A DNA stretch of 28,917 nucleotides from Candidatus Micrarchaeia archaeon. GTDB lineage: Archaea > Micrarchaeota > Micrarchaeia > Burarchaeales > JAVZCV01. The stretch spans positions 1-28,917 of the forward strand of contig JAVZCV010000014.1 in NCBI GenBank assembly GCA_038874215.1, in the 5' to 3' direction. Numbering within the stretch: position 1 is the stretch's first letter; each line of letters opens with the position of its first letter. The position numbers and the translations under genes were made by a program. Positions 2,526-21,473 of this stretch are shown here, piece after piece. The notes below the pieces were generated by a model, which worked only from the letters and a program-made list of their open reading frames with translations, was not told where the DNA came from and made no database searches.

Positions 2526-2540
2526 ATGCGGCCGCCGGGA

Positions 2541-2582
2541 TTTCCAGAAGTTTTTTTGGCGCAGCTCTTCCAAAAAAGCTGC
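2541..2582 (-). other. tRNA-Gly intron at 59/60 (42 nt)
   Basis: Central helix UUCA/UGGA with AA|G and AA|U bulges; intron-side helix imperfect. Confidence 0.8.
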
Positions 2583-2588
2583 TTTGAA

Positions 2589-2639
2589 TTCCCTGACCCA
2601 TCCGGTAAGGTTTTTCTTTCTTTGAGAAAGAAAGGGCCA
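2589..2639 (-). other. tRNA-Gly intron at 53/54 (51 nt)
   Basis: Relaxed BHB: CCCG/AGGG helix, GG|U and AA|U bulges, intron helix GGCCC/GGGUC. Confidence 0.82.
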
Positions 2640-2678
2640 CCCGGGTTGTGGGCTTGGAAGGCCCAAGTCCTAACCAGG

Positions 2679-2732
2679 TTGTCCAAACTCTTCTTTCTTT
2701 TTATGAAACTTTTCTTTTGAAAGAAAAGTTCC
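2679..2732 (-). other. tRNA-Gly D-loop intron at 15/16 (54 nt)
   Basis: BHB-like: GUCU/GGAC helix, AG|G and AA|C bulges, intron helix GAACUUUUC/GAAGAGUUU. Confidence 0.85.
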
Positions 2733-2816
2733 CTAGACTACGGCCGCATCGGCATTATATTGGCGGGATAAAAATAAAAATGGATAGATGGGAAAATGGG
2801 GGGACCGAGATTTGAA

Positions 2817-2894
2817 TTCCCGTGCCCTTTCTGTTCTTTCGGAATCGCTTTTTATTTGGGGTTGAGCACTTTCTTTTCCGAAAAAGAAAGGGCT
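2817..2894 (-). other. tRNA-Pro intron at 53/54 (78 nt)
   Basis: CCCG/CGGG central helix, AG|A and AA|U bulges, GCCCUUUC/GAAAGGGC intron helix. Confidence 0.83.
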
Positions 2895-2909
2895 CTCGGG
2901 TCTCAGGGT

Positions 2910-2973
2910 TTTCCGCAGCCTTCTGCTTTCTTTTTACGATGCAGCGCTTTTTCTTAAAAAGAAAAAGGGCTGC
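2910..2973 (-). other. tRNA-Pro canonical intron at 37/38 (64 nt)
   Basis: BHB: UUUG/CGGA helix, GG|G and AA|A bulges, CAGCC/GGCUG intron helix. Confidence 0.87.
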
Positions 2974-3065
2974 CCCAAACCCCGAAGCATTGCCAGGCTA
3001 GCCCATCCCCCCATGAAGTTATGGATTAGGTAGGAAAGGCATTTAAGTATTCGGCATGTGCGCTG

Positions 3066-3485
3066 TCAGTTGTTCTCGTTCCTCTCCATCAACTCTACAA
3101 TATTTCCGTTTTTTAAGGAGATTGAAACCGTGAAAAAGCCTGCACGGGTGTATAATCTCTTCGCTGGATTCGCATGGGCTACGTTGAGCTTGATTTTTGT
3201 TTTCCCCATATTACGCATAAGCATTATGGCACTGTTGAGGAGCGCTGTCCCTATTCCGCGATGCGAGAAGCTTTTCTCAACGGCTATGCCTACTATTGCG
3301 CAGTCTGAAACATCAACGCGTACAAAACCGACTGTGCGCCTACCAACCTGCGCAATGAGAACTATACTGTTTGGGTTATAAAATTCTTTTACATCGGTGT
3401 TTTCTTTGCCGAACCTTTCTTTAACGATATGCGATATTTTCGGTATGTCTGAAAGCTTCGCATTCCGTATAACAAATTCTACCAT
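3066..3485 (-). CDS. GNAT family N-acetyltransferase (RimI-like)
   Basis: Motif A (IAVEKSFSHRGIGTALL) and motif B (NPAKRLYTRAGF); start placed at MVEFVIR because the longer ORF runs into 23S rRNA. Confidence 0.88.
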   Translation of the reverse strand: MVEFVIRNAKLSDIPKISHIVKERFGKENTDVKEFYNPNSIVLIAQVGRRTVGFVRVDVSDCAIVGIAVEKSFSHRGIGTALLNSAIMLMRNMGKTKIKLNVAHANPAKRLYTRAGFFTVSISLKNGNIVELMERNENN

Positions 3486-3695
3486 ATCATGTGAATTTGC
3501 ATAAGGAGAATAAAATGATTTCTGCGAATGAGAAAATAAGAATCGGATGAAGAGAGCAATGCATGAGGATGCAAGGGCTTTAGTAACGGCAGGCTCGCAG
3601 ATCGCGTAAGCTCTCTGCATACACCCCCGTCCTATCAATGCCGTCTGCTACGGCCGCCCATCGCCACCTCGTTTTGAGGATGGCTTCGTCCTTAG

Positions 3696-3739
3696 TTAAG
3701 CCTCCGATAACCATCCTACCAAAAACTGGTTATCGGAGT
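3696..3739 (-). other. 23S intron (~E. coli 2754/2755, 44 nt)
   Basis: Interrupts GAAAGCAU|CUAAG; strict BHB AAGC/GCUU with AU|A and AA|C bulges; 12-bp intron stem CUCCGAUAACCA. Confidence 0.9.
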
Positions 3740-3953
3740 ATGCTTTCAGGACTTATCCATAAGCGCGTAGCTGCCCGGCAGTGCCAAAGACAACCGGTAG
3801 ACCAGAGGCGCCGATCCCCAGTTCCTCTCGTACTTAGGGGACCTTCCTCTCAGGTGGCGAGCACTCCCAGTAGATACTACCGAACTGTCTCGCGACGTTC
3901 TGAACCCAGCTCATGTAGGTCTTTAATGGATGAACAACCCAACCATTGGCGGC

Positions 3954-3996
3954 TTACAGCCTCGCAAACCGTCTGCTGAAAAATGGTTTGCAAGGT
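3954..3996 (-). other. 23S intron (~E. coli 2533, H91 loop, 43 nt)
   Basis: GCAG/CUGU helix, GA|A and AA|G bulges, 11-bp intron stem CCUUGCAAACC/GGUUUGCGAGG. Confidence 0.88.
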
Positions 3997-4053
3997 TCCT
4001 GCACCGCCAGGATGACCTAAGCCGACAGCGATGTACCAAACCGCGGGGTCGAT

Positions 4054-4112
4054 TCGTACAAACTTTCTTTCCTTTCTTTTGATGAAACTTTTCTTTAGGA
4101 AAGAAAAGCTTT
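4054..4112 (-). other. 23S intron (~E. coli 2477/2478, H89, 59 nt)
   Basis: Strict BHB: GUAC/GUAC helix, CC|A and GA|A bulges, both flanking helices paired. Confidence 0.9.
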
Positions 4113-4609
4113 GGGTACTCTCGCCCGCGACGAGCCTGTTACCCCCGGGGTAGCTTTTCTGACAGCTTGGGCCCCCATTAAAAGGGACACCAAGGTTCGT
4201 TAGGCCCTGCTTTCGCACCTGCGTGCCCTGCTGTGCGGCACACAGTCAGTCCTGCATTTGTCCTTAACCCTTAACGGCGGATTTCTGACCCGCCTAAGCA
4301 GAACTTTGGGCGCCCTTGTTTCCCTATCGAGGGCGTACCGCCCCAGCCAAACTATCCACCTGCCGCTGTCCCCTTCCGGGTGAGAGGCACGGTCCTCGTT
4401 GAGTGGTGTTACACTTTCGCCTCCGCATCCCCCGAGAGGAATGCCTCTGCGGCTCCCACTTACGCTCCGCAACAAAAACCATGCCCCAACAACAGGCTAT
4501 AGTAAAGCTCCACGGGGTCTTCGTTTCCCACTGGGAGTCCTCCGCATATTCACGGAGAAGTGAGTTCACCAGGTCCCGGGTAGGGACAGTGGGAGAGTCG
4601 TTATGCCCT

Positions 4610-4648
4610 TTCCACCGGCATCAATATATAAAAATGGATTGATGCCGT
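4610..4648 (-). other. 23S intron (~E. coli 1969/1970, 39 nt)
   Basis: 10-bp hairpin CGGCAUCAAU/AUUGAUGCCG inserted in GCAUGA..GGCAUAACG; relaxed BHB with 3 of 4 central pairs; register uncertain. Confidence 0.78.
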
Positions 4649-4748
4649 TCATGCAAGCCGCCAATTAAGCGGCGAGGTACTACGCTACCTTAAGAGGGTC
4701 AGAGTTACCCCCGCTCTTTACCGGCGCTTTGCTCCGTTGGAACGGAGT

Positions 4749-4781
4749 TTCGCCGAACCATTCTATATAAAGAAAGGTTCT
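4749..4781 (-). other. 23S intron (~E. coli 1854, H68, 33 nt)
   Basis: CGUC/GGCG helix, AA|A bulges on both strands, GAACC/GGUUC intron helix. Confidence 0.85.
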
Positions 4782-5724
4782 TTGACGTACCGGCAGTGAG
4801 CAGGCATCGGCCGCTATACTAAGCCTTACGGCTTTGCAGCGACCTGTGTTTTTGGTAAACAGTCGCTCTCCCCTTGTCACTGCGACCTGCGATTCCACTT
4901 GCGCAGAAACGCAGGCATGGCTTCTCCCGAAGTTACGCCACTAATTTGCCGAATTCCCTTACCCGAGTTCTCCTGACACGCCTGAGCCTTTTCAGCCAGC
5001 AACACCTGTACTGGTTCTAGGTACGGTCATGCGGAATCGTATTGGCTCCCTTTTCACGGGCTCAAGGAATTGACCGAACTGGCTTGCGCCAGCCATTCCC
5101 AAGATTAGGCTGCTTCTCCTCATAACGAGTCTCCACAGCCTTGCCTTGGTTAGACAGCCGAAGCTGCTCGGCCTATCCCCAAGCGTCAGGAACCAATATT
5201 GCGTTGCCGCGTCTATCCGCATGGCACGGGAATTTTAACCCGTTTCCCTTTCGCCACCGAGTAATTGGCTGGTGGCTTAGGACCGGCTTACTCTTGGCTG
5301 ACGAACGTTGCCAAGAAAACCGTGTGCTTTCGGCGTCCAGGATTCTCGCCTGGATTTGCTGTTACTAACACCAGGATGTTCATTCCTAATCGGTCCATCG
5401 GACCTCACGGCCCGACTTCTACCCGATCAGGACGCCCCCCTACCAGCACTTTGCTATGCAAAGTGCTCCGAGGTATCGGCACCAGACTTAGCCCCGAGCA
5501 TCTTCGGAACCTGCAATCTCGGCTGGTCCGCTATTACGCGTTGTTTAAAGGATGGCTGCTTCTAAGCCTACCTCCCAGCTGTTTTAGATTGGAGATTCCT
5601 TGTGGATTCGCACTTAGTCTGGATTTAGGGGCCTTAACCCCGGTCTCGGTCGTTCCCGTTCAGGCATGCTAGCTTACCCAGCATGCCCAACTCCTGCCTT
5701 CTACGGCGACGATGGATTCGGAGT

Positions 5725-5759
5725 TTTGTCGACCTTTTCTTTTTAAAAGAAAAGGTTCT
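5725..5759 (-). other. 23S intron (~E. coli 910, H38, 35 nt)
   Basis: UGUC/GACA helix, AA|A bulges, ACCUUUUCUUUU/AAAAGAAAAGGU hairpin. Confidence 0.87.
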
Positions 5760-5921
5760 TTGACAAAGTGGTAGAGCCTTTCGGCTCCGTGCCACTTAAT
5801 CAGTGCTCTACCCCATCGTCTGCCTCTAGCAGGGCTATTCTGAGGAATACTTTGGGGGGAACCCGCTATCGCCGAGTTCGATAGGACTTTCACCCCTACA
5901 CGCAGGTCACCTAAGCAGATA

Positions 5922-5984
5922 TTCCAGACAGCGATGGCAATTTAGAAAAACAGCCATCGCCGCTTACTAGCACTAGATGCGGGC
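5922..5984 (-). other. 23S intron (~E. coli 745-750, H35 loop, 63 nt)
   Basis: CUAG/CUGG helix, UA|A and AA|U bulges, 11-bp intron stem GCGGCGAUGGC/GCCAUCGCUGU; exon is divergent so the boundary rests on the BHB register. Confidence 0.78.
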
Positions 5985-6595
5985 CTCCACCGTCTTGGAA
6001 GACGGCTTCGCCCTGCCCACGTGTAGCTCACATCGGCTTCGGGTCTCATGAGAGTGATTAACCGCACTTTCATACGGCGGGCCTCCCTTTCGGTGCGCCC
6101 TATCGCTTTCGCTACGCCTTTCAGCTCACCACTCCCATGAACTCCCTGGCTCTTGCTTCGAGAAGAACGATGCAACCCTGTTTGGCGTTGGCTCGCTCAT
6201 CGCATCTCTGCGAATTGCTTCGCCACGCTACATTCCTTTCGGGCAGCATCGACCTGTAGTCTCTCAGTTTCAGGCTCTTTTCACTCCCCTTCCGGGGTAC
6301 TTTTCAGCTTTTGCTCGCGCTACTAGTGCGCTATCGGTCTCGGGTTATATTTAGGGTTGGATGTTAATACACCCATATTCACGCCCCATACCCGAGGGGC
6401 GCTACTCACCGCTCATCCTTCCCCATGCCTACGCCTACGGGGCTATCACCCTCTATGGCAGAGCTTTCCAGCTCTCTTCGGCTCGGCAGAAGGGATAGTT
6501 GATGAGCACCACATCTCCCACACATTACTGTGCAGGATTCAGGTTGCCCTGTGCGGCTTTCAGTCGCCCTTACTAACCGCATCCCTTTTGGTTTC

Positions 6596-6637
6596 TTAGA
6601 ATTTTGCCAACCTCATTCAAAAACGGGTTGGCAAAAT
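6596..6637 (-). other. 23S intron (~E. coli 219/220, 42 nt)
   Basis: Interrupts conserved AGGAAAA|GAAA; GGAA/UUCU helix, AA|A and AA|G bulges, UUUUGCCAACC/GGUUGGCAAAA stem. Confidence 0.87.
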
Positions 6638-6939
6638 TTTTCCTGCGGGTACTAAGATGTTTCAATTCCCCGCGTAATTACCCATTACTGGGTTATGGGC
6701 AATCCTGGGTTCAAGGGCTGCCTGCGCCTACCCCAGGCTTATCGCAGCTTGCCACGGCCCACAACTACCCGAGCCTAGCCATCCCCTGAGAGACAGCAAC
6801 AGCATCCGTGAACATGCATCGCCTCTCTTCATCCTCATGACTCTCAAGCATGAGAGCTGCCTTTCGGCGCATTCCCAACAGCGTTGGGACATGCTACTCG
6901 TGAAATGAGTAGTATGAATGTGATATGGACTCGGCGAGA

Positions 6940-6991
6940 AGTTCAGAGGGCAACCCATCTTGAACACAGATGTTTATGGGGAAGCCCTTCT
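6940..6991 (-). other. tRNA-Ala intron at 59/60 (52 nt)
   Basis: Strict BHB: UUCA/UGAA helix, AA|A and CU|U bulges. Confidence 0.88.
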
Positions 6992-7013
6992 TTTGAACTC
7001 GCGGCCTCCTCCT

Positions 7014-7045
7014 TATTTGAAACTTTTCTTTTTAAGAAAAGTTCA
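7014..7045 (-). other. tRNA-Ala canonical intron at 37/38 (32 nt)
   Basis: Strict BHB: UUUG/CAAA helix, CG|U and UA|A bulges, GAACUUUUCUU/AAGAAAAGUUU stem. Confidence 0.9.
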
Positions 7046-7596
7046 CGCAAAGGAGGCGCTCTACCACTGAGCTACGAGCCCAACCTTTCAACTGTGTTTC
7101 AAAAGAAACACAGCACAACCCCAAGAACCGAATCCACGCTCTCGCGCCTTGCACGTAAACTAAAGGAGGTGATCTATCCGCAGGTTCCCCTACGGATACC
7201 TTGTTACGACTTAGCCCCCCTCATAAAGCTCTAGTTCGACGCTACCACGAGGATAACGCCTCACTAGAACCTTACTTGGGTGACTTGACGGGCGGTGTGT
7301 GCAAGGAGCGGGGACGTATTCACCGCGCGATGTTGACACGCGATTACTAGGGATTCCAGCTTCATGAGGGCGAGTTTCAGCCCTCAATCCGAACTCAGGC
7401 TAGGTTTGGGGATTAGCTTCTCCTCTCGGAGTCGCAACCCATTGTCCTAGCCATTGTAGGCCACGTGTAGCCCGGGAGATTCAGGGCATACTGACCTACC
7501 GTCGCCCTCTCCTTCCTCCTGCTTAACGCAGGCAGTCTCTACAGAGTGCCCGTTTCAAAAGAAACGGTAGCAACTGTAGACGAGGGTCTCGCTCGT

Positions 7597-8114
7597 TTCC
7601 GGGCCTGCGGGCATCAAACTTTCAAAAATTTAAGATGAGTTTTTACAAAACCAAGAAAATCTGATGAGATGTAAAGAGCACTGCCTATGCGCTTTGTCCT
7701 AAAATTGAGTCTTTCAAGCATGTGCTCGTCTGCTTCGTCGGCTCTTGCTAGGAAGGGCAAGCCTTTGCGGATACCACCACAACCATCAAAAAAGCCTGCG
7801 AGGTATTCTGCGCTCTTTTCGTTCCTTTCTCTGAAAATATTCAAGCGCTCATTGACAACCTTCTGAAAAAACTTTTTGTAAGCGGAGTGATAGAAGTATG
7901 CCTCGTTCTCTTTTATCGTTATCTTATCCCCACGCGTTAGCCCGTTTCTGATGCACTCTGAGACGAATATTCCAACTATTTTTTTGTTTCCTGTTATCCC
8001 TATTCCGTGCTCTCCCCCTCTCGCCTTCCATAGGCCAACTACATATGCGATATTTGGAGTTAGTTTCAGCTTCATTCAATCACTCTTCAATCAACATGAG
8101 GCTGCCCACAGGCA
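7597..8114 (-). mobile_element. 16S rRNA BHB intron (~E. coli 1101/1102, 518 nt) carrying a homing-endonuclease ORF
   Basis: Removal restores AAGUCCGGUA|ACGAGCG; CCGG/CCGG helix, UA|U and AA|A bulges, 11-bp stem GCCUGUGGGCA/UGCCCGCAGGC. Confidence 0.93.
7614..8075 (-). CDS. intron-encoded LAGLIDADG-family protein
   Basis: Two LAGLIDADG-like helices, IAYVVGLWKARGG (degenerate) and EYLAGFFDGCGGI; sense to the rRNA and inside the intron loop. Confidence 0.85.
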   Translation of the reverse strand: MKLKLTPNIAYVVGLWKARGGEHGIGITGNKKIVGIFVSECIRNGLTRGDKITIKENEAYFYHSAYKKFFQKVVNERLNIFRERNEKSAEYLAGFFDGCGGIRKGLPFLARADEADEHMLERLNFRTKRIGSALYISSDFLGFVKTHLKFLKV

Positions 8115-8262
8115 TACCGGACTTAACCGGACAGCTCACACCACGAGCTGACGATGGCCATGCACCACCTCTCGGCTCGTCTGGCAAGATCTTCAGTCTG
8201 GCCTTCATACTGCCGTCTCTCCCGGTAATATTCCCGGCGTTGAATCCAATTGAACCGCAGCC

Positions 8263-8305
<43 letters not shown>

Positions 8306-8518
8306 ACCTTGCGGCCGTACTCCCCAGGCGGCAGACTTAACACCTACGCTACGGCACTGCAACAGCTCTAAGCTGTTGCAACACCACAGTCTGCATAATT
8401 TACTGCTAGGGCTACTCGGGTATCTAATCCGATTCGTTCTCCTAGCCTTCGTCCCTCACCGTCAGACGTGTTTTGGCCAAGCGCCTTCGCCACCGGGAGT
8501 CCTCACAGGATTACAGGA

Positions 8519-8575
8519 TTGTAAGACCCTTCTTTGGTGAAGCTTTCTTTGATTGCTTAATAGGAAGAAAGGTTC
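8519..8575 (-). other. 16S intron (~E. coli 694-697, h23 loop, 57 nt)
   Basis: Interrupts GGGGUAAAA|UCC; GUAA/UUAC helix, AA|G and AA|U bulges. Confidence 0.85.
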
Positions 8576-8861
8576 TTTTACCCCTACCCTGTGAGTACTC
8601 TTGGCCTCCCCCACTCTCAAGCTCCGCAGTATTTCCTGCGCGCCCCCGGGTTAAGCTCGGGGATTTCACAAGAAACTTACAGAGCCGGCTACGGACTCTT
8701 TAGGCCCAATATTCGTGGGCACCACTTGGGCTGCCAGTGTTACCGCGGCGGCTGGCACTGGTCTTACCCAGCCCTTATTCCCCAAGCGGGTTAGACTTGG
8801 GAAAAGGTGCTCCCGTAGAGCACCACTCAGAGTCCCCCCGTCACGCTTTCGCGCATTGCGG

Positions 8862-8892
<31 letters not shown>

Positions 8893-8900
8893 AGGGCCCT

Positions 8901-8945
8901 TGGACACGGTTCTGACCACCCTACTAAAACTCGTCAGAGCCATGT
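8901..8945 (-). other. 16S insertion or intron (~E. coli 329/330, 45 nt)
   Basis: Interrupts CUGAGACA|AGGGCCC; hairpin CAUGGCUCUGAC/GUCAGAACCGUG; central helix only about 2 bp. Confidence 0.75.
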
Positions 8946-9459
8946 TGTCTCAGTGCCCTTCTGGGGGCTCCAACTCCCATTGCCCCCACTGATTATCGGC
9001 TTGGTGGGCCGTTACCCCACCAACAACCTAATCAGCCGCAGTCCTTTCCTCAGGCGGGCTGGCTGCATTTCGCCAGTCCTTTTAGACCATCAAGCATTCC
9101 AGCATAGATGGCCTATCGGGTATTAGCCTCAGTTTCCCGAGGTTATCCCCGTCCTGAGGGTAAGTTGACTACGTGCTACTCAGCCGTTCGCCGCCCTCGG
9201 AAGCCCGAGAGCAGACTTGCATGGCTTAGTCGGACTCTGATAGCAGTGCCCTCCAGCAGGATCAACTGGAGTTTTCACGAATAGAGTACGCCACAAAGCG
9301 GATCAGCAGTGGAACACACTTGTTTCGTGTCGGTTCTTGAGGTCTCAGTCTAACCCAAGAGTCTTGGGTTACCATCGGTCATGTAGGCTGTAGTGGATAG
9401 AATGTTCATTGCACGAAAAAAATCGCGCTCTATTCGGCCAGGACTACAGCCGAATCGGG

Positions 9460-9495
9460 TAAATATTATATATCGTTATCTTTTTATATATATCT
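9460..9495. promoter_or_regulatory. AT-rich TATA-like region between the divergent rRNA operon and ccdA-like gene
   Basis: TTATATAT and TTTTTATATATAT runs upstream of the GC-rich rRNA leader. Confidence 0.55.
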
Positions 9496-9538
9496 TCCGC
9501 TCCACCGAGCAATAAAATAAAAAATAGCGGATGGTCAG

Positions 9539-12931: not shown

Positions 12932-12948
12932 CGTGCCGTTGCGCCTGC

Positions 12949-13362: not shown

Positions 13363-13465
13363 AAAAACCACCGTATGTTATACTGCTGCAATTTTTAAAG
13401 TTTGATTGGTGCGCCAGTTTTTATTAATTGGGACATAAAACATAAGCAGAGCACTGGTGGGCTCA

Positions 13466-14182: not shown

Positions 14183-14185
14183 CAT

Positions 14186-14494: not shown

Positions 14495-14565
14495 AGAAAG
14501 ACGATCGTGCAAAAAATTTATATTTATTCATATAAAATATTTTATTAAAATAAAATAGTGGTGCC

Positions 14566-15651
14566 ATGGGGAAGATAAAAATCGCAATAGCCGGTATAGG
14601 GAATTGCGCATCCTCTCTGATTCAAGGCATAAACTACTATAGGAAAATAGATGGGAATTCGCCTCCAACTCCAGGTATAATGCACAACGTTCTTGGGGGA
14701 TATCGGATAGGGGATATAGAAGTTGTGGCCGCTTTTGATATTGATAAGCGAAAAGTTGGGAAAGATGTTGCTGATGCGATATTCACACCGCCCAATTGCA
14801 CCGTTAAGTTTTCAGATGTTGAGAAGACTGGTGTAGTTGTGATGAAAGGTCCTGTTCTTGACGGGGTTGCAGAAACTACGAAAGATGAGTTCAAAGTGGA
14901 CTCCTCCCAGAGCCCCTGCAATGTGGGTGAAGTTCTCAAAAAGGCGGGCGCAGAAATCCTGATAAACTACCTCCCAGTCGGCTCAGAGAAGGCAACTCGC
15001 TACTATGCGGAGGAGTGCATAAAGGCTGGCTGCGCTTTCATAAATGCGATGCCCGTTTTCATAGTTTCTGACAGCGGATGGGCTAAAAAATTTGAGGAAA
15101 ACGGCCTGCCCGCCATAGGCGATGACGTGAAAAGCCAGGTTGGGGCAACTATACTACATAGAACGCTTGCTAAACTTTTTGTAGATAGGGGTGTTATGCT
15201 TGAGAGAACGTACCAACTCAACGTTGGGGGTAATACTGATTTTCTGAACATGATGGAGCGTGGGCGCCTTGTTTCAAAAAAGATAAGCAAAACTGAAGCA
15301 GTCCAGTCGCAACTTCCGACAAGACTTGTTGATAGCAGCATTCATATAGGACCAAGCGATTACGTGAAATGGCTTGGGGACAAAAAAATAGCCTTCATAA
15401 GGCTTGAAGGTAGAAAATTCGGCAATGTGCCCATAACGGTGGAGGTTAGGCTTGAGGTTGAAGATTCCCCTAACTCTGCAGGGATAATGGTTGATGCTAT
15501 AAGATGCTGCAAAATTGCACTGGACAGGAATATTGGCGGGTCGCTTATATCGGCATCTGCATACTTTATGAAACACCCACCACAACAGCATTCTGATGAT
15601 ATTGCACGCATAATGGTTGAGGAATTTATATCTGGTAAGAGGGAAAGATGA
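14566..15651 (+). CDS. ino1: myo-inositol-1-phosphate synthase
   Basis: GIGNCASSL, NYLPVGS, GDDVKSQVGAT, QLNVGGNTDF, DSPNSAG and YFMKHPP motifs. Confidence 0.97.
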   Translation: MGKIKIAIAGIGNCASSLIQGINYYRKIDGNSPPTPGIMHNVLGGYRIGDIEVVAAFDIDKRKVGKDVADAIFTPPNCTVKFSDVEKTGVVVMKGPVLDGVAETTKDEFKVDSSQSPCNVGEVLKKAGAEILINYLPVGSEKATRYYAEECIKAGCAFINAMPVFIVSDSGWAKKFEENGLPAIGDDVKSQVGATILHRTLAKLFVDRGVMLERTYQLNVGGNTDFLNMMERGRLVSKKISKTEAVQSQLPTRLVDSSIHIGPSDYVKWLGDKKIAFIRLEGRKFGNVPITVEVRLEVEDSPNSAGIMVDAIRCCKIALDRNIGGSLISASAYFMKHPPQQHSDDIARIMVEEFISGKRER

Positions 15652-16271
15652 TGATAAAAGGTATGGAATTTGCGGAAAACGCTTCTGTACGCGTCGGTAT
15701 AATTTTCTCAAAATTACCGATTTCACCAAACATGTGGACTATTCTATCACTCATTCCAGCTCTCCTTGGATTATTTGCACTTCGTGCTGGTTCTATGTTT
15801 GGTGGCTTCGTTTTTTTTGCTTGTGCTGGCTTGATAGATGTGATAGATGGAGCCGTTGCGCGTGTTACTGGGAGGGCAACTGCCTTGGGCGCATTCCTTG
15901 ACGGTGTGGTTGATAGGGTGGTTGAGGCAATGCTTCTTCTTGGGCTTCTACTATACGGTCTGCCCGATGCAGGTGAGGTGGTTTACATAAATCCAACCAC
16001 AACTATTTTCTCAGTTCTCTTTTTCGGAACATGTATGACGAGCTTTGTAAAGGCCTACGCTCACCATAGGGGGGCAATAGGAGATGCCGAGGTAAAGAAG
16101 ATGGGGGGGATTCTTGAAAGACCAGAAAGGCTTTTCCTACTGTTGGTTTCTCTTATTGCAGGAATTTTTAGTCCTTTATGGACTATGTACGTTCTTTTGG
16201 CAACGGCATTATTATCTGCTTTAACAGTTTTGGAACGCATGTTTTTCGTGCTTAAAAGACAGAACTCATGA
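15648..16271 (+). CDS. CDP-alcohol phosphatidyltransferase (probable archaetidylinositol phosphate synthase)
   Basis: SPNxxT, DVIDGAVAR...GAFLDGVVDR signature, GGILERPER; ATGA-coupled to ino1. Confidence 0.9.
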   Translation: MMIKGMEFAENASVRVGIIFSKLPISPNMWTILSLIPALLGLFALRAGSMFGGFVFFACAGLIDVIDGAVARVTGRATALGAFLDGVVDRVVEAMLLLGLLLYGLPDAGEVVYINPTTTIFSVLFFGTCMTSFVKAYAHHRGAIGDAEVKKMGGILERPERLFLLLVSLIAGIFSPLWTMYVLLATALLSALTVLERMFFVLKRQNS

Positions 16272-18731
16272 GTTCGCCATCTGCTCTCTGCCTTTTTTTG
16301 TAAGTCTATAGAAAACGAATTTTTTACCTTCCTCTTCAACTTTTTCAACCAAGCCAGCCTCCTCCAATTTCTCAAGATGTTCAACTATTGTGGATTTGCT
16401 TTTGCCAAATTTTTGACTTAGGTATGTTGGTGTTTTTTCGCCTTCTTTCAGCTCTTTCAAGAGGTCAAAGCGCGTCTCAGATGAGAGCGCTTTGTGTAAT
16501 TCTATATCGCTTGCCTGAACCTGCCGCGAACGCATCATTATTGAAAGAATTAAGAATGCAAGCAGAACGATAAATATTAAGGCGGCGGGTAGAAATGCCT
16601 TAACTTTACCCACAAAATCGCCAAGCCGCCCTGCTATATAATTGCTGATTTCGCTTGTATATGCCGGCTGGTCGGTTTTTTCCCCAATATCAAAAATCTC
16701 TATGCCTTTTCCATCAACACAAAATACGACATTCGTACCCGCTGAGAGATATTTCGCAGTCCTCTCATCGCCCGCAAGCTCTATGTACCTTTTTGAACCG
16801 AACTCTACCCTTTCATAAGCCTGCGAATCACTGCACGCCGTATCCTTCCAAACGTTGCCAAGTAGTACGAAGGATTTTTCGCCTATGTTTTTTATACCGC
16901 TTGTGTGCGAAGCCAAAGATGAATCTGCGCTTTCATACTGCGCTGCTGTTACAGATGTTGCGCCGAAAGTCCATGGAGCTACCGACTGCGGAACGGCAAA
17001 AGTTTTTTCCTGCTTTATTTCACCAGCAACAACATAGGAGGTATACGGGGAAGGTATTCCATATCTCTTTGCAAGTTGTTTTATTTCATTTACGAGCTCG
17101 GGCCTCTCCCCTTCTGTTGCGATCGTGGAGAGCAGATAACCGACTTTTCTAGTTGCCCATGTTCTCTCAACAAACGGATTGCGTGCATGGGATGGAAAAA
17201 CGACAGAGTATTCCAAACTCTTAGGACCGCTACTTGTGTTTCCCGTTATTATTACTTTTGCACTCCCGGAGCCGTTGTATCTTCCGGCAAAAACAACCTG
17301 CGTACCAGAGAAAATGTCGGGTTGTCTTTTTGGGTATATTTCATAAACAAATAAATTGGAATCGCTGGGGATTATTGCCATTTTTGGATTTACTATTAGC
17401 GGCGAGGATATGCGCTTGTAGAAAGAGGTGAGCACGGACTCCAGCTCGGCGTCAGTCCTAACATAGATGGGTATACCATCCCCATACTCGTTTGATAATT
17501 TGTCAAGAAGTTCAAAGTCTATATCTTCCCCAACTCCGAATGTGAATACCTTTGCATGAGTTCCTTCAATAGATCGTAATATTTCGTTATGCTTATGACC
17601 TACTGTATCTCTACCATCTGTCAGTAAAACGATTATCCCAAACCTTTTATTTTCCTCTCCTTGAATAAGTGTATCTGCCTTTTTTAGAGCATCGTATATG
17701 TTGGTAGATCCTGAGGGCTCAAGTGAATTCACAAAATCAACACCAAGGCTTATGTTTTCTTCCGATGCGAAAAGCAGGGTCTTTGAAAAAACTTGCGTAT
17801 AGCTTGAAAACGCGACTATGCTGAATCTATCTTTTTCAGATAAGTTCCTAAGGATGTATTTGAGTGCCTTTTTTGCATTCTCAATCTTATTCCCCAGCAT
17901 GCTGCCAGATGTGTCAATGACGAAAACGAAGTCTTTTGGCATAGTTTCCTTTTCTTCTATAGTAGGGTATATGAAAAGCATGAAATAATTCCCATTCTCA
18001 CCCGTGTTTGAAAGAAGATTAACGTCATAATCCCGTTTTTCCACTCCATAGAAAAGCTCAAAATCCGTATTTGGTATTTCTTTTGCATAATAACTGACAG
18101 TTGCAGTATTGCCTTCCCGGATTACGCTGATATTGTGGGTTGGTGAGAAAACAAAACCTATCTTTCCATCTCCGCTAATGGATATCATCATACTAACAGG
18201 ATCTATGGGCTCGGTAGTGTATCTCTCAGGGCTTAATGGATAGGAATAGTGGTATATACCACTGCTTACATCTAGTATCTGCTCATACTCTATCTGTACC
18301 CGTATATTTTTATTTCGCGGTAGGATTAGTCTGGCAGCAAAAGTCTCCGTACCTACATATTCAAGGAGTGATGCTTCTTTTCTTGCGATTGCGTATTTTT
18401 GGTATATGGCTTTAGCCTCCTCGCTTCCAAGCATTTTGCCTTCATAAACCACCCCATCAACAACAAGGTTAAAATTGCGTATCCCTCCCTTAGGAACAGG
18501 GAAAACGTATGTGCCCTCAATATCCCTAAAACCTCTGTTCTCAAAAGCCTGATCAACTTTCGTAAGCGCATATGAACCGTTTATTGTAACGGTAACATTA
18601 TGATTTAGTATTAATGGAAACGGATCTGAAGGTCTATCTGGTAGTATCATTCCATCTGAAAAAACCAAACCTAAAAAAATCATCAAGATGGAGAATTCAA
18701 AAAAGCGCTTGGTCTTGTAATGACCACACAT
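16266..18731 (-). CDS. VIT + vWA domain membrane protein with C-terminal ArsR-type winged HTH
   Basis: N-terminal hydrophobic segment; VIT (DQAFEN..IEGTYVFPVP); vWA MIDAS FVIDTSGSM, GSTN, LLTDG; TM helix; KALSSETRFDLLKEL..STIVEHLEKLEEAGLV. Confidence 0.88.
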   Translation of the reverse strand: MCGHYKTKRFFEFSILMIFLGLVFSDGMILPDRPSDPFPLILNHNVTVTINGSYALTKVDQAFENRGFRDIEGTYVFPVPKGGIRNFNLVVDGVVYEGKMLGSEEAKAIYQKYAIARKEASLLEYVGTETFAARLILPRNKNIRVQIEYEQILDVSSGIYHYSYPLSPERYTTEPIDPVSMMISISGDGKIGFVFSPTHNISVIREGNTATVSYYAKEIPNTDFELFYGVEKRDYDVNLLSNTGENGNYFMLFIYPTIEEKETMPKDFVFVIDTSGSMLGNKIENAKKALKYILRNLSEKDRFSIVAFSSYTQVFSKTLLFASEENISLGVDFVNSLEPSGSTNIYDALKKADTLIQGEENKRFGIIVLLTDGRDTVGHKHNEILRSIEGTHAKVFTFGVGEDIDFELLDKLSNEYGDGIPIYVRTDAELESVLTSFYKRISSPLIVNPKMAIIPSDSNLFVYEIYPKRQPDIFSGTQVVFAGRYNGSGSAKVIITGNTSSGPKSLEYSVVFPSHARNPFVERTWATRKVGYLLSTIATEGERPELVNEIKQLAKRYGIPSPYTSYVVAGEIKQEKTFAVPQSVAPWTFGATSVTAAQYESADSSLASHTSGIKNIGEKSFVLLGNVWKDTACSDSQAYERVEFGSKRYIELAGDERTAKYLSAGTNVVFCVDGKGIEIFDIGEKTDQPAYTSEISNYIAGRLGDFVGKVKAFLPAALIFIVLLAFLILSIMMRSRQVQASDIELHKALSSETRFDLLKELKEGEKTPTYLSQKFGKSKSTIVEHLEKLEEAGLVEKVEEEGKKFVFYRLTKKGREQMANS

Positions 18732-18784
18732 AGCATCACCAAGAAATAATTCTTTTTTAGACTATATATTGGTTTTTAGTTTTG

Positions 18785-18801
18785 TTCGGTTAAAACCGAA
18801 C
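18785..18801. terminator. hairpin immediately after the histone stop codon
   Basis: Inverted repeat gttcggtt/aaccgaac directly 3' of the stop; function is inferred. Confidence 0.3.
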
Positions 18802-18803
18802 TA

Positions 18804-19004
18804 TTATTTGCTGGCAAGCCTTATATCTTCTGCTGTAACTGTTTTTCTGCCAGCGTGTTTTGATAGGACGATTGCCTTTGCGGCTATTTCTTTTGCCTTT
18901 GCCTCAAGAATTTGGGCAAGTTCGACAGCTGCGCTTTCGCTAACTCTTTCCGCCCCAGCCTGCCTTATAAGCCTTTCTACGGTTGCTGTTGGCAATTCGG
19001 GCAT
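18804..19004 (-). CDS. archaeal histone (HMf family)
   Basis: ELPTATVERLIRQAGAERVS...HAGRKTVTAEDIRLA is a canonical HMfA/B-type sequence. Confidence 0.96.
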   Translation of the reverse strand: MPELPTATVERLIRQAGAERVSESAAVELAQILEAKAKEIAAKAIVLSKHAGRKTVTAEDIRLASK

Positions 19005-19106
19005 TAATACCACCGTGTTTAATTAGAAAAAGCCCTTATATATACTTTTCTATTTTTTTGATTTTTTAATGCAGTAAAAAAATAAATTAGGGTTCTATCT
19101 TTTTTT

Positions 19107-20600
19107 ATGGCTGAAATAGGTTTTGGCAAATTAAATCCCAGGAAGTATCAGCTGGATATATATAGAAGCATAGTGAAAAGAGGGAACACGCTCGTAGTCC
19201 TGCCAACGGGGCTCGGAAAGACTATGATTGCATTACTGGTGATGAGGGATTTTCTGGCACGTGGAGAGAAGATCCTGTTTCTCGCTCCTACGAAGCCGCT
19301 CGTTGAGCAGCATGCAAAAACCATTAAAGAGAACCTTGGTGTTGATGAAGGAAGGATTGCGGTTATAACGGGCGAGATAAAACGTGATGAGAGGGTTGCG
19401 CTTTGGGGAAAGGAAGTGATTGTAGCAACACCCCAAACAGTGAGAAATGATTTGGAAAGAGGGGTGGCTATAAAGCCAGCGCTAATAATTTTTGATGAAG
19501 CACATAGAGTGGTAGGGAATTATGCTTACACATACATTGCGTCTGCATTCAAAGACGCGCTGATGGTAGGTCTTACGGCATCACCAGGAAGCGATAGAAA
19601 AAAGATAGAGGGGATAATGAAGGCGCTTGGCATAAAAAATGTAGAAATAAGAGGGAGGGAGGACGAAGATGTTAGGGAATACGTAAAGGAATTGAAAATA
19701 AGGTGGGTTAGCGTTGAATTGCCTCAGGAGTTTCGTGAAGTAAAGCATATTATTGAATCCATAGTTGACGAGAAGATAGGGAAGCTGCGTGAGGCTGGCT
19801 TCACTAGAATTCATGGGCATGCTGGAATATCAAAAAAGAGGTTGATTGAGATAGGCGAGAGGATAAGAAGGGATGGGAGGAAACCAACTGTTTTCTATGC
19901 CGCCCAACTTTACTCTTCGCTTATGGCTCTTATGCACGCACTTGAACTGCTTGAAACGCAAGGTAGAAGCACATTCTTGGAGTTTTTTGATAGGCTGGAA
20001 AGGAGGGATAAGAAAAGCAGAGGTATAAAAAGCGTTCTAAATGATTGGCGGATTAAACAGATAAGAGAGCGCATGAAGGGAATAAACATGGAGCATCCGA
20101 AGCTCACAGAACTTAAAAAACTGGTTGAAGAAAGAAAGAACCAGAGCATCATAGTTTTCGTGCATTATAGGGATCAGGTTAGGAAGGTTGTTGAGGAGCT
20201 TTCGGGAATCGTGAAGGTTCGTAGGTTTGTTGGTAAGGCTGAAATAACGCAAAAGGAGCAGGCTCGCATAATAGAGGAGTTTAGGAGGGGGGAATTCAAC
20301 ATTCTCGTTGCAAGTTCAATAGGAGAAGAAGGGCTTGACATACCCTCTGTTGATTGCGTTATATTCTATGAACCCGTCCCAAGCGCTATAAGGTCGATAC
20401 AACGAAGAGGTAGGGCTGGAAGAAGCAAATCGGGCGAGGTTATAGTTCTGGTAACAAGGAATACAAGGGATGAGGCGTATTACTGGGTTGCAAAAGCGAA
20501 GGAGAAGAAAATGGAGAGGATAATACAGGGTATCGCTTCTGGGAAAGACGCAGGGAAAAAAGTAGTGATTGGGCAAACAAAAATAAGCGATTTCTTGTAA
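19107..20600 (+). CDS. Hef/FANCM-like DEAH helicase (helicase part only)
   Basis: LPTGLGKT, LAPTKPLVEQH, DEAH, TASPG, EEGLDIP, QRRGRAGR; C-terminal PIP-box QTKISDFL. Confidence 0.93.
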   Translation: MAEIGFGKLNPRKYQLDIYRSIVKRGNTLVVLPTGLGKTMIALLVMRDFLARGEKILFLAPTKPLVEQHAKTIKENLGVDEGRIAVITGEIKRDERVALWGKEVIVATPQTVRNDLERGVAIKPALIIFDEAHRVVGNYAYTYIASAFKDALMVGLTASPGSDRKKIEGIMKALGIKNVEIRGREDEDVREYVKELKIRWVSVELPQEFREVKHIIESIVDEKIGKLREAGFTRIHGHAGISKKRLIEIGERIRRDGRKPTVFYAAQLYSSLMALMHALELLETQGRSTFLEFFDRLERRDKKSRGIKSVLNDWRIKQIRERMKGINMEHPKLTELKKLVEERKNQSIIVFVHYRDQVRKVVEELSGIVKVRRFVGKAEITQKEQARIIEEFRRGEFNILVASSIGEEGLDIPSVDCVIFYEPVPSAIRSIQRRGRAGRSKSGEVIVLVTRNTRDEAYYWVAKAKEKKMERIIQGIASGKDAGKKVVIGQTKISDFL

Positions 20601-20602
20601 TT

Positions 20603-20941
20603 TCAGCGGATATATGCAGGTTGGACCGGATGCTTTGACTGCTGTTCTTTTCTTATTTTTTCGTAGTATTCAGTGTAGCGATCCCATAGGAGTTTTGCTT
20701 TTTCACCATGTACAACTTTTGTAACTACCATAGTTGGAGCAGGCCCCTTCTTATCCAAGGGCCTATAATCAACGAGAACTATGTCATTCTCTTTCATTTT
20801 GTCGGCTATTTTGCTGTCAACCAGAAGCGTAAGTAGTTTTTCGTCCCACATTTGCAAAAGAGCCTGTGTTGTTGAATCGGCAGCCACTATGTTTTTATCT
20901 TTAGCAGAAAATAACAAAAGGACCTTTCCTGGGTGGTACAT
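20603..20941 (-). CDS. hypothetical protein
   Basis: ORF from MYHPGKV; the longer track ORF extends antisense into RNase P RNA so the start was trimmed. Confidence 0.75.
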   Translation of the reverse strand: MYHPGKVLLLFSAKDKNIVAADSTTQALLQMWDEKLLTLLVDSKIADKMKENDIVLVDYRPLDKKGPAPTMVVTKVVHGEKAKLLWDRYTEYYEKIRKEQQSKHPVQPAYIR

Positions 20942-20962
20942 GAAAGAAGTTTGAAGCGTGCA

Positions 20963-20972
20963 TTTATATAAA
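20963..20972. promoter_or_regulatory. palindromic TATA box shared by divergent RNase P RNA and hypothetical gene
   Basis: TTTATATAAA is self-complementary and lies about 20-25 nt from both starts. Confidence 0.6.
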
Positions 20973-20990
20973 TTCTGCGCAGATATATTT

Positions 20991-21272
20991 GTGAGTGGCT
21001 GGTCGGCAGCTATCCGGCTTGCACGGAGGAAGTTCTGCCCATCGCGAAAGCCCCACGAAAGCCTAAGGCTTGGGACAGGAACAGAAACGAAACTGCCCGC
21101 AAAGGATGAGAATGAAGAGATGAGACGATGGGGCAAGATGAAACGTGCCTGTCTGAGGGGTGCCGTGTGCGATGCAAGGTTTTATACCGCTAAGTCGAAT
21201 GCTGCATAAAACAGAAGGCAGAGGGTTTTCTTCTATAGAGAAAACTTGCCCAAACTATGGCCGGCCACTCAT
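20991..21272 (+). ncRNA. rnpB: RNase P RNA with a 32-nt insertion in CR-V/P4
   Basis: P1 helix GUGAGUGGCUGGUC/GGCCGGCCACUCAU; CR-I GAGGAAGUUCUGCC; CR-II ACAGAAA; CR-III UGAAAC; CR-V ACAGAAGGCAG...ACUAU. Confidence 0.92.
21222..21253 (+). other. candidate BHB intron in RNase P RNA (32 nt)
   Basis: AGGC/GCCC helix (3 of 4 pairs), AG|A and AA|A bulges, GGGUUUUCU/AGAAAACUU stem; removal gives ACAGAAGGCAG|ACUAU and restores P4. Confidence 0.8.
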
Positions 21273-21297
21273 AAAAAATGCCAAGGGCGGGATTTGA

Positions 21298-21329
21298 TTG
21301 CGGGACCATTCGGCTTTTCCGAACGACCT
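21298..21329 (-). other. tRNA-Met intron at 54/55 (32 nt)
   Basis: GCGG/CCGC helix, GU|A and AA|U bulges, GGUCGUUCGG/CCGAAUGGUC stem. Confidence 0.88.
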
Positions 21330-21346
21330 ACCCGCGACATCCAGAT

Positions 21347-21398
21347 ATCCCGCGAGCGCTTTTGATTTCATTGCACATGGCTCATAACTCATACGCCG
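21347..21398 (-). other. tRNA-Met intron at 37/38 (52 nt, possibly two stacked introns)
   Basis: Insertion at the canonical site containing tandem UAUGAG copies complementary to the anticodon loop. Confidence 0.85.
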
Positions 21399-21473
21399 TA
21401 TGAGTCTGGCGCTCTAACCAGGCTGAGCTACCTTGGCATAAAATTTTTCCAGGAGATATTTTTATACTCTACC

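Follow-up and report, generated by a model that had tools for sequence, protein, structure and literature searches.

BHB-type insertions predicted to be introns in the rRNA, tRNA and RNase P RNA genes of a Micrarchaeota-like archaeon

The window (the whole stretch of 28,917 nucleotides that was analysed) belongs to a tiny Micrarchaeota-like DPANN archaeon, whose metagenome-assembled genome is 91% complete in 38 contigs. It contains seven stable RNA genes: four tRNA genes, the 16S and 23S rRNA genes and the RNase P RNA gene (Table 1). Comparison with intron-free relatives and Rfam models showed 21 insertions and all seven genes are interrupted: three insertions are in tRNA-Gly, two in each of tRNA-Pro, tRNA-Ala and tRNA-Met, eight in 23S, three in 16S and one in RNase P RNA, which is the count proposed in the initial annotation, made from the sequence alone. 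Twenty of them are gene-free, as had been claimed, and range between 30 and 78 nt; the upper end of the earlier range (32-78 nt) is maintained, but the smallest insertion is 30 nt by the BHB rule. The exception is a 518-nt insertion in 16S. The statement that every stable RNA gene is interrupted holds within the window but not genome-wide, and a spread through "any RNA" is too broad: elsewhere in the genome, 5S rRNA (114 nt) and SRP RNA (298 nt) show no length excess and look uninterrupted, as do four tRNAs found by ARAGORN outside the window. The assembly contains one SSU and one LSU match and a single rRNA operon.

In the window, ARAGORN called no tRNAs and Rfam called two. The limits of the tRNA genes and their introns were read from the sequence, and the exons were joined to a cloverleaf; the joined exons are cloverleaf sequences of 72-75 nt with the expected anticodons, and tRNA-Ala(UGC) carries G3:U70. 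The rRNA genes exceed their Rfam models (2109 nt observed versus 1478 positions in SSU, and 3249 nt versus 2987 positions in LSU), and their three and eight insertions, respectively, were mapped with MAFFT against intron-free rRNAs of the same class.

Table 1. Stable RNA genes of the window and their predicted introns. Positions in rRNA are approximate E. coli positions. Helix, base pairs formed in the four-pair central helix.
Feature	Coordinates	Strand	Length (nt)	Position and features	Helix
tRNA-Gly(UCC) gene	2527..2747	-	221 (74 without introns)	3 introns (15/16, 53/54, 59/60)	
tRNA-Gly intron 1	2679..2732	-	54	D-loop 15/16; family-B module	4/4
tRNA-Gly intron 2	2589..2639	-	51	53/54	3/4
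tRNA-Gly intron 3	2541..2582	-	42	T-loop 59/60	4/4
tRNA-Pro(UGG) gene	2797..3012	-	216 (74 without introns)	2 introns (37/38, 53/54)	
tRNA-Pro intron 1	2910..2973	-	64	canonical 37/38	4/4
tRNA-Pro intron 2	2817..2894	-	78	53/54; fold also supports	4/4
23S rRNA gene	3563..6811	-	3249 (about 2911 without introns)	8 introns	
23S intron 1	6596..6637	-	42	near 217; family A	4/4
23S intron 2	5922..5964	-	43	near 748; family A architecture; 11-bp stem	4/4
23S intron 3	5725..5759	-	35	near 908; family B	4/4
23S intron 4	4749..4781	-	33	near 1854; family B	4/4
23S intron 5	4610..4648	-	39	near 1969	3/4
23S intron 6	4054..4112	-	59	near 2472; family-B module	4/4
23S intron 7	3954..3996	-	43	near 2533; family A	4/4
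23S intron 8	3696..3739	-	44	near 2754; family A	4/4
Spacer tRNA-Ala(UGC) gene	6926..7081	-	156 (72 without introns)	2 introns (37/38, 59/60)	
tRNA-Ala intron 1	7014..7045	-	32	37/38; family-B module	4/4
tRNA-Ala intron 2	6940..6991	-	52	T-loop 59/60	4/4
16S rRNA gene	7164..9272	-	2109 (about 1491 without introns)	3 introns	
16S intron 1	8901..8943	-	43 by BHB rule (45 by alignment)	near 327; family A	4/4
16S intron 2	8519..8575	-	57	near 694	4/4
16S intron 3	7597..8114	-	518	BHB ends; 11-bp intron stem	4/4
ORF within 16S intron 3	7614..8075	-		153 aa	
RNase P RNA gene	20990..21275 (approximate ends)	+		P1 closed by 21254-21272	
RNase P RNA intron	21223..21252	+	30 by BHB rule		4/4 (Watson-Crick)
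tRNA-Met(CAU) gene	21279..21437	-	159 (75 without introns)	2 introns (37/38, 54/55)	
tRNA-Met intron 1	21347..21398	-	52	37/38	3/4
tRNA-Met intron 2	21298..21329	-	32	T-loop 54/55	4/4

In the proposed splice motif, the four exon bases directly upstream of the 5' splice site would pair with four bases near the intron 3' end, and this helix would lie between two 3-nt bulges, stacked on the intron's own hairpin; most of the motifs would be of the relaxed "HBh" kind, in which the exons form no helix with each other. The central helix has four perfect pairs in 18 of the 21 insertions and three pairs in the other three, which agrees with the earlier observation that in most cases the intron 3' end pairs with the four exon nucleotides before a 3-nt bulge. 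A strict test from an earlier pass of the analysis (all four helix pairs, and 3 bp or more in the intron stem) was passed by 15 of the 21, while length-matched random pseudo-introns gave a mean of 0.13 per 21 and a maximum of two in 2000 trials. For 16S intron 1 and 23S intron 2 the limits were picked by the motif itself, which inflates the count of motifs at these two sites. The weakest motif of the set is that of tRNA-Met intron 1, with an incomplete helix and a poor intron stem (2). Unconstrained folding of the local precursor recovered helix, 3-nt bulge and intron stem in eight of the 20 short introns, tRNA-Pro intron 1 and the RNase P RNA intron included. Furthermore, 14 introns end in AA at the 3' side. 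Read by eye, a cut by the BHB rule yields the sequence of the intron-free relatives in 18 of the 21 cases; in 16S intron 1 and RNase P RNA the product is 2 nt longer than in every relative aligned, so the rule or the chosen limits are slightly off at these two sites. When the motif is searched for by itself, with a 7-bp stem, many matches fall within protein genes too, and it is therefore not diagnostic without alignment evidence.

The RNase P RNA gene was detected with Rfam at a permissive threshold (RNaseP_arch, 20994-21234, plus strand, 73 bits versus a gathering score of 84). The P1 3' strand lies about 38 nt past the end of this match and forms a duplex of -30.8 kcal/mol. The intron is placed after the 3' strand of P4 and before that of P1, and would have to measure 32 nt for the product to match the relatives. 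None of the 16 aligned relatives carries the insertion, and a literature search for introns in RNase P RNA genes of archaea found no earlier report.

Among the 16S insertions, intron 1 has a homologous intron in one relative (G004), which also shows a 29-nt intron at the site of 23S intron 7, and the site of intron 2 is occupied in three relatives of the same class. Intron 3 occupies the site that is numbered E. coli 1093 in a report on other Micrarchaeota; of 17 relatives mapped there, 13 show an insertion of 484-628 nt and one more an insertion of 95 nt. Its ORF shows no Pfam match, and the predicted fold is I-DmoI-like (pLDDT 95.7, TM 0.62-0.69 to I-DmoI chains), with 13-18% sequence identity to I-DmoI. 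Read by eye, the usual catalytic acidic position is non-acidic in both motifs. Structure prediction suggests that intron 3 is a classical intron with a homing-endonuclease-like gene of the two-motif LAGLIDADG fold.

The introns comprise at least two recognisable sequence families, several introns resembling nothing else and the classical one with the endonuclease-like gene. Family A has nine members at nine different rRNA sites in four genomes, and its consensus fold is a half-BHB with compensatory changes in 14 of 15 pairs. The family-B module is common to tRNA-Gly intron 1, tRNA-Ala intron 1 and 23S intron 6 (24 of 25 nt are identical between the first and the last), and recurs on other contigs, where three tRNA genes have it in their introns. 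In addition, 23S introns 3 and 4 share the same target sequence, with a junction identity of 12/16. Related introns are thus found across RNA classes and at different sites, which bears out part of the initial proposal that an ORF-less family has spread; the members do not form one family. In the families of the twenty gene-free introns, a conserved distal hairpin is kept while the stem base and the 4-nt pairing strand vary by host site, and on this account the introns would behave as small mobile modules. They would persist where the host RNA offers four pairing bases and a broad-specificity enzyme still cuts. This mobility is suggested by the sequence relationships.

The relatives show a comparable picture. 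Of 61 rRNA mini-insertions in their genes, 43 pass a relaxed BHB test (control mean 7.7, maximum 15), and one relative has 12+12 rRNA insertions. Homologous introns occupy the same sites in independent genomes at 16S reference coordinates 325, 653 and 1057 and 23S reference coordinates 1889 and 2541. As judged from these alignments, the rRNA mini-intron phenomenon is class-wide.

The EndA encoded in the genome is a full-length protein of the three-unit epsilon2 type. It is homologous to that of ARMAN-2 (PDB 4fz2; E 1.3e-138 over residues 5-385), and its catalytic Tyr/His/Lys, as well as the Lys of the specificity loop, align with the residues named in PMC3488258. This typing is in line with the broad-specificity EndA postulated in the initial annotation. 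RtcB is also encoded. We infer that the dimeric EndA would cleave both bulges of each of the 21 introns and that RtcB would ligate the exons, the released intron probably circularising.

We consider it highly probable, from the sequence evidence, that the 21 insertions, in the sole rRNA operon, the four tRNA genes and the gene for RNase P RNA, are archaeal BHB introns. An improbable alternative reads the short insertions in the rRNA and RNase P RNA genes as expansion segments or intervening sequences, which would be retained or be cut without re-joining to give a fragmented rRNA. In its favour, each insertion folds into a hairpin of its own, which might stick out of the ribosome surface, splicing in this organism is deduced rather than seen, and Sakai et al. 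2022 (PMC8784108, available text) call it uncertain that a cultivated Micrarchaeon loses its 16S insertion by splicing. However, the same motif, 3-nt bulges and frequent AA end flank the tRNA introns, which are unretainable, insertion sites vary among relatives while the flanking rRNA is conserved, and the enzymes to cut and to re-join are both encoded. Several introns lie in functional cores (the T-loops of tRNAs, and 23S rRNA around E. coli 2472-2533), where retention would be hard to tolerate with one SSU and one LSU match in the assembly; the single operon makes excision very likely. Furthermore, the only RNA-library contigs close to this organism, 98% identical to its genes, lack the insertions at three predicted junctions, exactly where their matching stops. 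One contig of run X2 matches 21007-21222 with four differences in 216 nt, ends its match at the predicted 5' splice site of RNase P RNA and continues for 13 further letters; another shows three differences in 163 nt and matches between 5759 and 5921, where the edges of 23S introns 3 and 2 are predicted. An equally possible source of these contigs is a close relative whose genes lack these introns.

An origin of the insertions in faulty assembly or binning (chimeric contigs, or a dead, pseudogenised copy of the rRNA operon) is very improbable. The window comes from a metagenome-assembled genome, and rRNA operons are notoriously mis-assembled, but Logan contigs of DNA run X1, a separate assembly that may be of the source sample, match the window with 0-7 differences per piece and are identical across 13 of the 21 introns; homologous introns at the same sites in independent genomes and the single SSU and LSU matches in the assembly also stand against it. 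Equally remote is the possibility that the insertions are group I or II introns, whole or as remnants, that splice themselves with no need of EndA: group I introns are known in Micrarchaeota rRNA genes beside BHB introns (Nawrocki et al. 2018, available text), but twenty of the insertions are far below ribozyme size, Rfam matched neither group I nor group II models in the window, with E values of up to 5 admitted, and the 518-nt intron has clean BHB ends and a long stem.

The BHB introns favoured here have several known counterparts. The 23S rRNA of Desulfurococcus mobilis contains a BHB intron encoding I-DmoI, a monomeric two-motif LAGLIDADG protein and the best structural match to the ORF of 16S intron 3. 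Thermoproteus has a permuted SRP RNA with BHB processing. The Cbf5 pre-mRNA intron of Crenarchaeota is also processed in this way, outside tRNA and rRNA (PMC2738675, available text). Both cases extend EndA substrates beyond tRNA and rRNA, and neither is RNase P RNA.

For Thermoproteales, Jay and Inskeep 2015 (PMC4496867, available text) list 13 loci of 16S rRNA introns, and some of these BHB introns are short (<50 nt) and form hairpins. As in the window, ORF-less hairpin introns occur in rRNA beside introns with LAGLIDADG genes, and E. coli 1093 is shared; the sites near 327 and 694 match no locus number given there, the numbering of the window being approximate. Thermoproteales differ in phylum and EndA type, and in the window 23S carries eight introns and modules are shared with tRNA introns. 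A 16S insertion at E. coli 1093 is also described in ARM-1, a cultivated Micrarchaeon, and in ARMAN-2, at the corresponding place and with a protein of similar size without database annotation; the available text of that paper (PMC8784108) left protein function and splicing open, whereas the intron of the window shows BHB ends and its protein has a predicted I-DmoI-like fold.

The closest system is ARMAN-2 (Candidatus Micrarchaeum acidiphilum), with disrupted tRNA genes (Fujishima et al. 2011, PMC3239211) and an epsilon2 EndA that cuts strict and relaxed motifs in vitro (Hirata et al. 2012, PMC3488258). As far as the available text of these papers goes, the window shares with it the phylum-level lineage, the EndA architecture and tRNA intron positions, including 53/54 and 59/60 in one T-loop; rRNA appears there only for phylogeny and the term "RNase P" is absent. 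Earlier work has described short hairpin introns in rRNA as well as tRNAs with several introns, and the kind of intron is known; its density is unusual, the same kind of intron filling 16S, 23S and RNase P RNA here.

Rfam places an archaeal 23S gene, a 16S gene, an RNase P RNA gene and two tRNAs in the window, which is contig 14 of 38 in a genome of 1.13 Mb (91% complete). Standard tools miss most of its stable RNA genes: ARAGORN found none of the four tRNAs of the window, and the RNase P RNA falls below the curated Rfam cut-off. MAFFT alignment with normal-length genes of the same class (1486-1528 nt for 16S and 2851-2917 nt for 23S) shows three private insertions of 45, 57 and 518 nt in the 16S gene and eight in the 23S gene, one of which, 59 nt long, had been split by MAFFT. 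Extra sequence in relation to intron-free homologues was found at 11 sites in rRNA and one in RNase P RNA, and at nine in the tRNAs, these last in relation to the tRNA model and the cloverleaf. The 21 insertions counted in the initial annotation (three in tRNA-Gly, two in each of tRNA-Pro, tRNA-Ala and tRNA-Met, eight in 23S, three in 16S and one in RNase P RNA) are matched exactly by the rRNA and RNase P alignments and the reading of the tRNAs; this observation is right, and the splice motif at the insertions is well above chance. A search with the T-loop consensus gave nothing tRNA-like in the window outside the known genes, nor was anything tRNA-like seen by eye in the gap 18732-19106. The whole assembly has one SSU and one LSU match, so the interrupted genes must supply the ribosomes of the cell. 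Between the 23S gene and tRNA-Pro, and in the same orientation, a small ORF (approximately 3066-3500, minus strand) shows by eye a motif like that of GNAT-type acetyltransferases.

Stable RNA genes of the window, with two of the introns and the intron-encoded ORF
Feature	Position	Strand	Intron positions	Exon sum (nt)	Basis or remark
23S gene (archaeal)	3563-6811	-			Rfam; 262 nt over model length
16S gene	7164-9272	-			Rfam; 631 nt over model length
16S intron 3	7597-8114	-			518 nt
ORF in 16S intron 3	7614-8075	-			153 aa
RNase P RNA	20994-21234	+			Rfam, permissive threshold; 73 bits vs curated cut-off of 84
RNase P RNA intron	21223-21252	+			
tRNA-Gly(UCC)		-	15/16, 53/54, 59/60	74	minus strand read
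tRNA-Pro(UGG)		-	37/38, 53/54	74	minus strand read
tRNA-Ala(UGC), spacer		-	37/38, 59/60	72	minus strand read
tRNA-Met(CAU)		-	37/38, 54/55	75	minus strand read

The bulge-helix-bulge (BHB) motif was scored as the pairing of exon positions -6 to -3 with intron positions n-5 to n-2, plus an intron stem after a 3-nt bulge. With the final coordinates, the central helix between the two 3-nt bulges shows four of four pairs in 18 of the 21 introns and three of four in tRNA-Gly intron 2, tRNA-Met intron 1 and 23S intron 5. Fourteen of the 21 introns end in AA. In most of the 21 the outer helix is present on the intron side only, which is the relaxed form of the motif. A complete helix together with an intron stem of 3 bp or more was found in 15 of 21 introns, using earlier coordinates, compared to 0.13 per 21 (maximum of 2 in 2000 trials) in length-matched random pseudo-introns. 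Unconstrained folding of local precursors recovered the helix, 3-nt bulge and stem in eight of the 20 short introns. Excision at the bulges gives the conserved mature sequence exactly in 18 of 21 cases, read by eye against the relatives; the strict BHB cut leaves two extra nucleotides in 16S (intron 1) and in RNase P RNA in relation to all relatives, and 23S intron 2 falls within a length-variable region. For 16S intron 1 and 23S intron 2, the motif itself guided the choice of limits. In a scan of the window, the motif with a 7-bp stem alone also has many matches in coding DNA; therefore the insertions are counted as introns because of the alignment evidence, and the scan was discarded as too unspecific a probe of uninterrupted protein genes.

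The genome encodes, on contig 2, an EndA of 385 aa with an N-terminal domain and two stretches of catalytic domain, which aligns end-to-end with PDB 4fz2 (residues 5-385 against 7-387, E 1.3e-138). This structure is the epsilon2 EndA of ARMAN-2, whose key residues, according to the available text of its report, are the catalytic Tyr236, His251 and Lys282 and a Lys161 in the loop giving broad specificity (PMC3488258). All four are identical in the EndA of the genome, by alignment to 4fz2 with positions counted by hand. The enzyme, which the initial annotation had singled out for typing, thus belongs to the three-unit epsilon2 type by its length and these four residues, and its match to the ARMAN-2 enzyme fits the placement in Micrarchaeota. 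The ARMAN-2 EndA is described, in the text available, as cutting the strict motif at 37/38 and the relaxed one at 59/60 (Fujishima et al., PMC3239211). RtcB is encoded on contig 11. A search of the genome, which is 91% complete, for reverse transcriptase domains gave none. The proposed cutting by EndA and joining by RtcB is backed by the genes for both enzymes and by the geometry of the motif, on sequence grounds, and EndA/RtcB-spliced BHB introns are very probably the best explanation of the insertions.

Sequencing reads were compared as Logan contigs. For 13 of the 21 introns, the sequence of the window is recovered in contigs of X1, a DNA run from a hot-spring metagenome that may be the source sample, each piece showing 0-7 differences. 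The RNA run X2 gave close matches, including mRNA pieces of approximately 95% identity and an RNase P RNA contig with four differences in 216 nt. This contig matches 21007-21222 and continues with 13 further letters, 21222 being the final base of the exon upstream of the predicted intron; in a second X2 contig, the middle matches 5759-5921, the edges of 23S introns 3 and 2. These contigs, which are 98% identical to the window and break at three predicted junctions, are compatible with splicing and equally with transcripts of an intron-free close relative. A previous placing of 23S intron 2 at 5928-5958, which left 12 extra nucleotides, was dropped, and the intron was re-placed to 5922-5964 (43 nt) because the X2 contig breaks at 5921; the new limits also suit the architecture of its family. 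Contigs of two further RNA runs, X3 and X5, jump several intron sites, such as 3953 to 3997 and 4052 to 4112, and were set aside as evidence of splicing since, at 88-95% likeness, they represent rRNA of other organisms. Stretches without RNA cover were taken as evidence neither way.

One ORF of 251 aa (21474-22229, minus strand) contains two BHB-like hairpins, each with a 12-bp stem, at 21554-21623 (minus strand) and 22008-22088 (plus strand). The first, which is on the coding strand, has a length of 70 nt, not divisible by three, and the reading frame continues through it, so that an mRNA intron is unlikely. As for self-splicing introns of group I or group II, these were rejected because no ribozyme model of Rfam matched the window, either at the gathering score or with E values up to 5.

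The longest insertion, 16S intron 3, contains an ORF which has no Pfam family even at an E value of 10, and a word-index protein search retrieved three relatives only; homologues were therefore drawn from the 16S introns of relatives at the same site. Of these 13 ORFs, 12 show 29-46% identity to the 153-aa protein and one shows 15%. The predicted structure (pLDDT 95.7) has two alpha-beta-beta-alpha-beta-beta-alpha halves packed via the motif helices, and structural matches ranked 1-11 are all chains of I-DmoI, with TM scores of 0.62-0.69 and E values down to 1.3e-5. No acidic residue was seen by eye at either motif end in the sequences aligned. At the corresponding positions, the motif-end ones which we take to be catalytic, motif 1 is rich in Lys/Arg and motif 2 shows Cys, Met, Lys, Arg or Ser. 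Because neither LAGLIDADG-like motif keeps the expected acidic residue, the protein may be an inactive or maturase-like descendant. The site is occupied in 14 of the 17 relatives mapped, 13 with 484-628 nt and one with 95 nt, and corresponds to the insertion at E. coli position 1093 in ARM-1 and ARMAN-2, for which the accessible part of the report leaves a 'hypothetical protein' open, on which this result bears (PMC8784108).

For the 3' strand of P1 in the RNase P RNA, the Rfam assignment is wrong; the true strand, at approximately 21254-21272, forms a duplex of -30.8 kcal/mol with the 5' end. The hairpin between the conserved P4 3' strand and P1 is present in none of the 16 aligned relatives (12 of the same order and four of the same class), and this copy is an apparent recent gain in the lineage. 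A scan of 38 RNase P RNA genes of the class for other introns gave no clear case, the differences in length being ambiguous and located for the most part in the 5' region.

At least two sequence families were distinguished among the introns, several of which resemble no other. Family A contains 23S introns 1, 2, 5, 7 and 8 and 16S intron 1, which share a plan of one A, a stem of 8-15 bp leading to a conserved core, a loop run of T4-T5, the 4-nt pairing strand and, usually, AA. Adding three introns of relatives from other rRNA sites gives nine sequences at nine rRNA sites in four genomes, whose consensus fold is a half-BHB. Compensatory changes occur at 14 of its 15 pairs, and similarity is kept in the distal stem and loop. 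In the 23S introns at 6596-6637, 5922-5964, 4610-4648, 3954-3996 and 3696-3739 (minus strand), each loop has a run of five T on the transcribed strand; T runs of such kind resemble archaeal termination signals, and transcription of the rRNA operon would have to pass five of them. Family B, with T/C-rich against A/G-rich sequence, contains 23S introns 3, 4 and 6, 16S intron 2 and several tRNA introns; 23S intron 6 and tRNA-Gly intron 1 have 24 of 25 nt in common, and the module is also found, on other contigs, in introns of tRNA-Leu(CAA), tRNA-Glu(UUC) and tRNA-Gly(GCC). Two members of this family, 23S introns 3 (5725-5759) and 4 (4749-4781), are approximately 950 nt apart in the mature RNA. 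Their targets agree in the 5 nt before and the 6 nt after the insertion point (12 of 16 positions in all), and the single difference in the upstream exon is matched by a change in the pairing strand. Elsewhere in the genome, contig C1 shows at approximately 23050-23250 (plus strand) a family-B-like hairpin between two pairs of sequences resembling C/D-box motifs. Strings like box C recur in this region and its end is like box D, so it may encode a C/D-box small RNA into which a hairpin or intron has been inserted.

The apparently recent RNase P RNA copy, the identical 11-nt targets of 23S introns 3 and 4 and the presence of family A at nine sites in four genomes suggest, tentatively, that the ORF-less mini-introns are small mobile RNA modules in an active population and not decayed remnants, although we consider this rather doubtful. 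The evidence points towards a conserved distal hairpin that would move between tRNA, rRNA and RNase P RNA genes and would survive where four upstream exon bases pair with its 3' tail. Insertion of such modules could be guided by sequence or RNA pairing, for example by EndA/RtcB reversal or short-homology recombination, and would need no homing endonuclease. If mobile modules were confirmed, the lineage would be a natural system to watch the gain of protein-spliced introns. The way in which BHB introns without a mobility gene spread touches on how disrupted RNA genes and splicing endonucleases of broad specificity have evolved together, and the lineage offers many young-looking copies of recognisable families, in three RNA classes and with site differences between relatives. 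Two leads are the most useful: the intron of the RNase P RNA, and what the families and target sites indicate on the spread of ORF-less BHB introns.

The genome is not very special within its class, in which mini-insertions are common, mostly at sites other than those of the window. One relative of the same order (G009, loci L007 and L055) has more than the window, with 12 in a 16S gene of 3943 nt and 12 in a 23S gene of 3476 nt, most of them with BHB-like ends, and another (G019) has no mini-insertions in 23S. Among insertions of 24-80 nt in the relatives, 43 of 61 show a relaxed BHB, compared to a control mean of 7.7. Outside the window, the 5S rRNA and SRP RNA of the genome have no excess length. 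ARAGORN called 16 tRNA genes in the whole genome, 12 with an intron and four uninterrupted, some of them dubious (one with a 'stop' anticodon and one with a 436-nt intron); only 16 tRNAs in a 91%-complete genome indicates that most tRNA genes are invisible here to standard finders. Since these finders miss interrupted genes, errors easily arise in the gene content and taxonomy stated for such genomes, and 16S primers and classifiers would be disturbed by the three insertions.

The literature searched, which covered few subscription journals and no supplements, gave no account of a comparable mini-intron density in Micrarchaeota rRNA, of intron modules shared between tRNA and rRNA, or of an intron in any RNase P RNA gene. 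As far as the accessible parts of the reports go, multi-intron tRNAs and the epsilon2 enzyme have already been described in ARMAN-2 (PMC3239211, PMC3488258), short hairpin BHB introns in the 16S genes of Thermoproteales (PMC4496867), and BHB and group I introns together in rRNA genes of Micrarchaeota (Nawrocki et al.). In relation to these systems, the window is a dense and instructive further example of an already known intron type.
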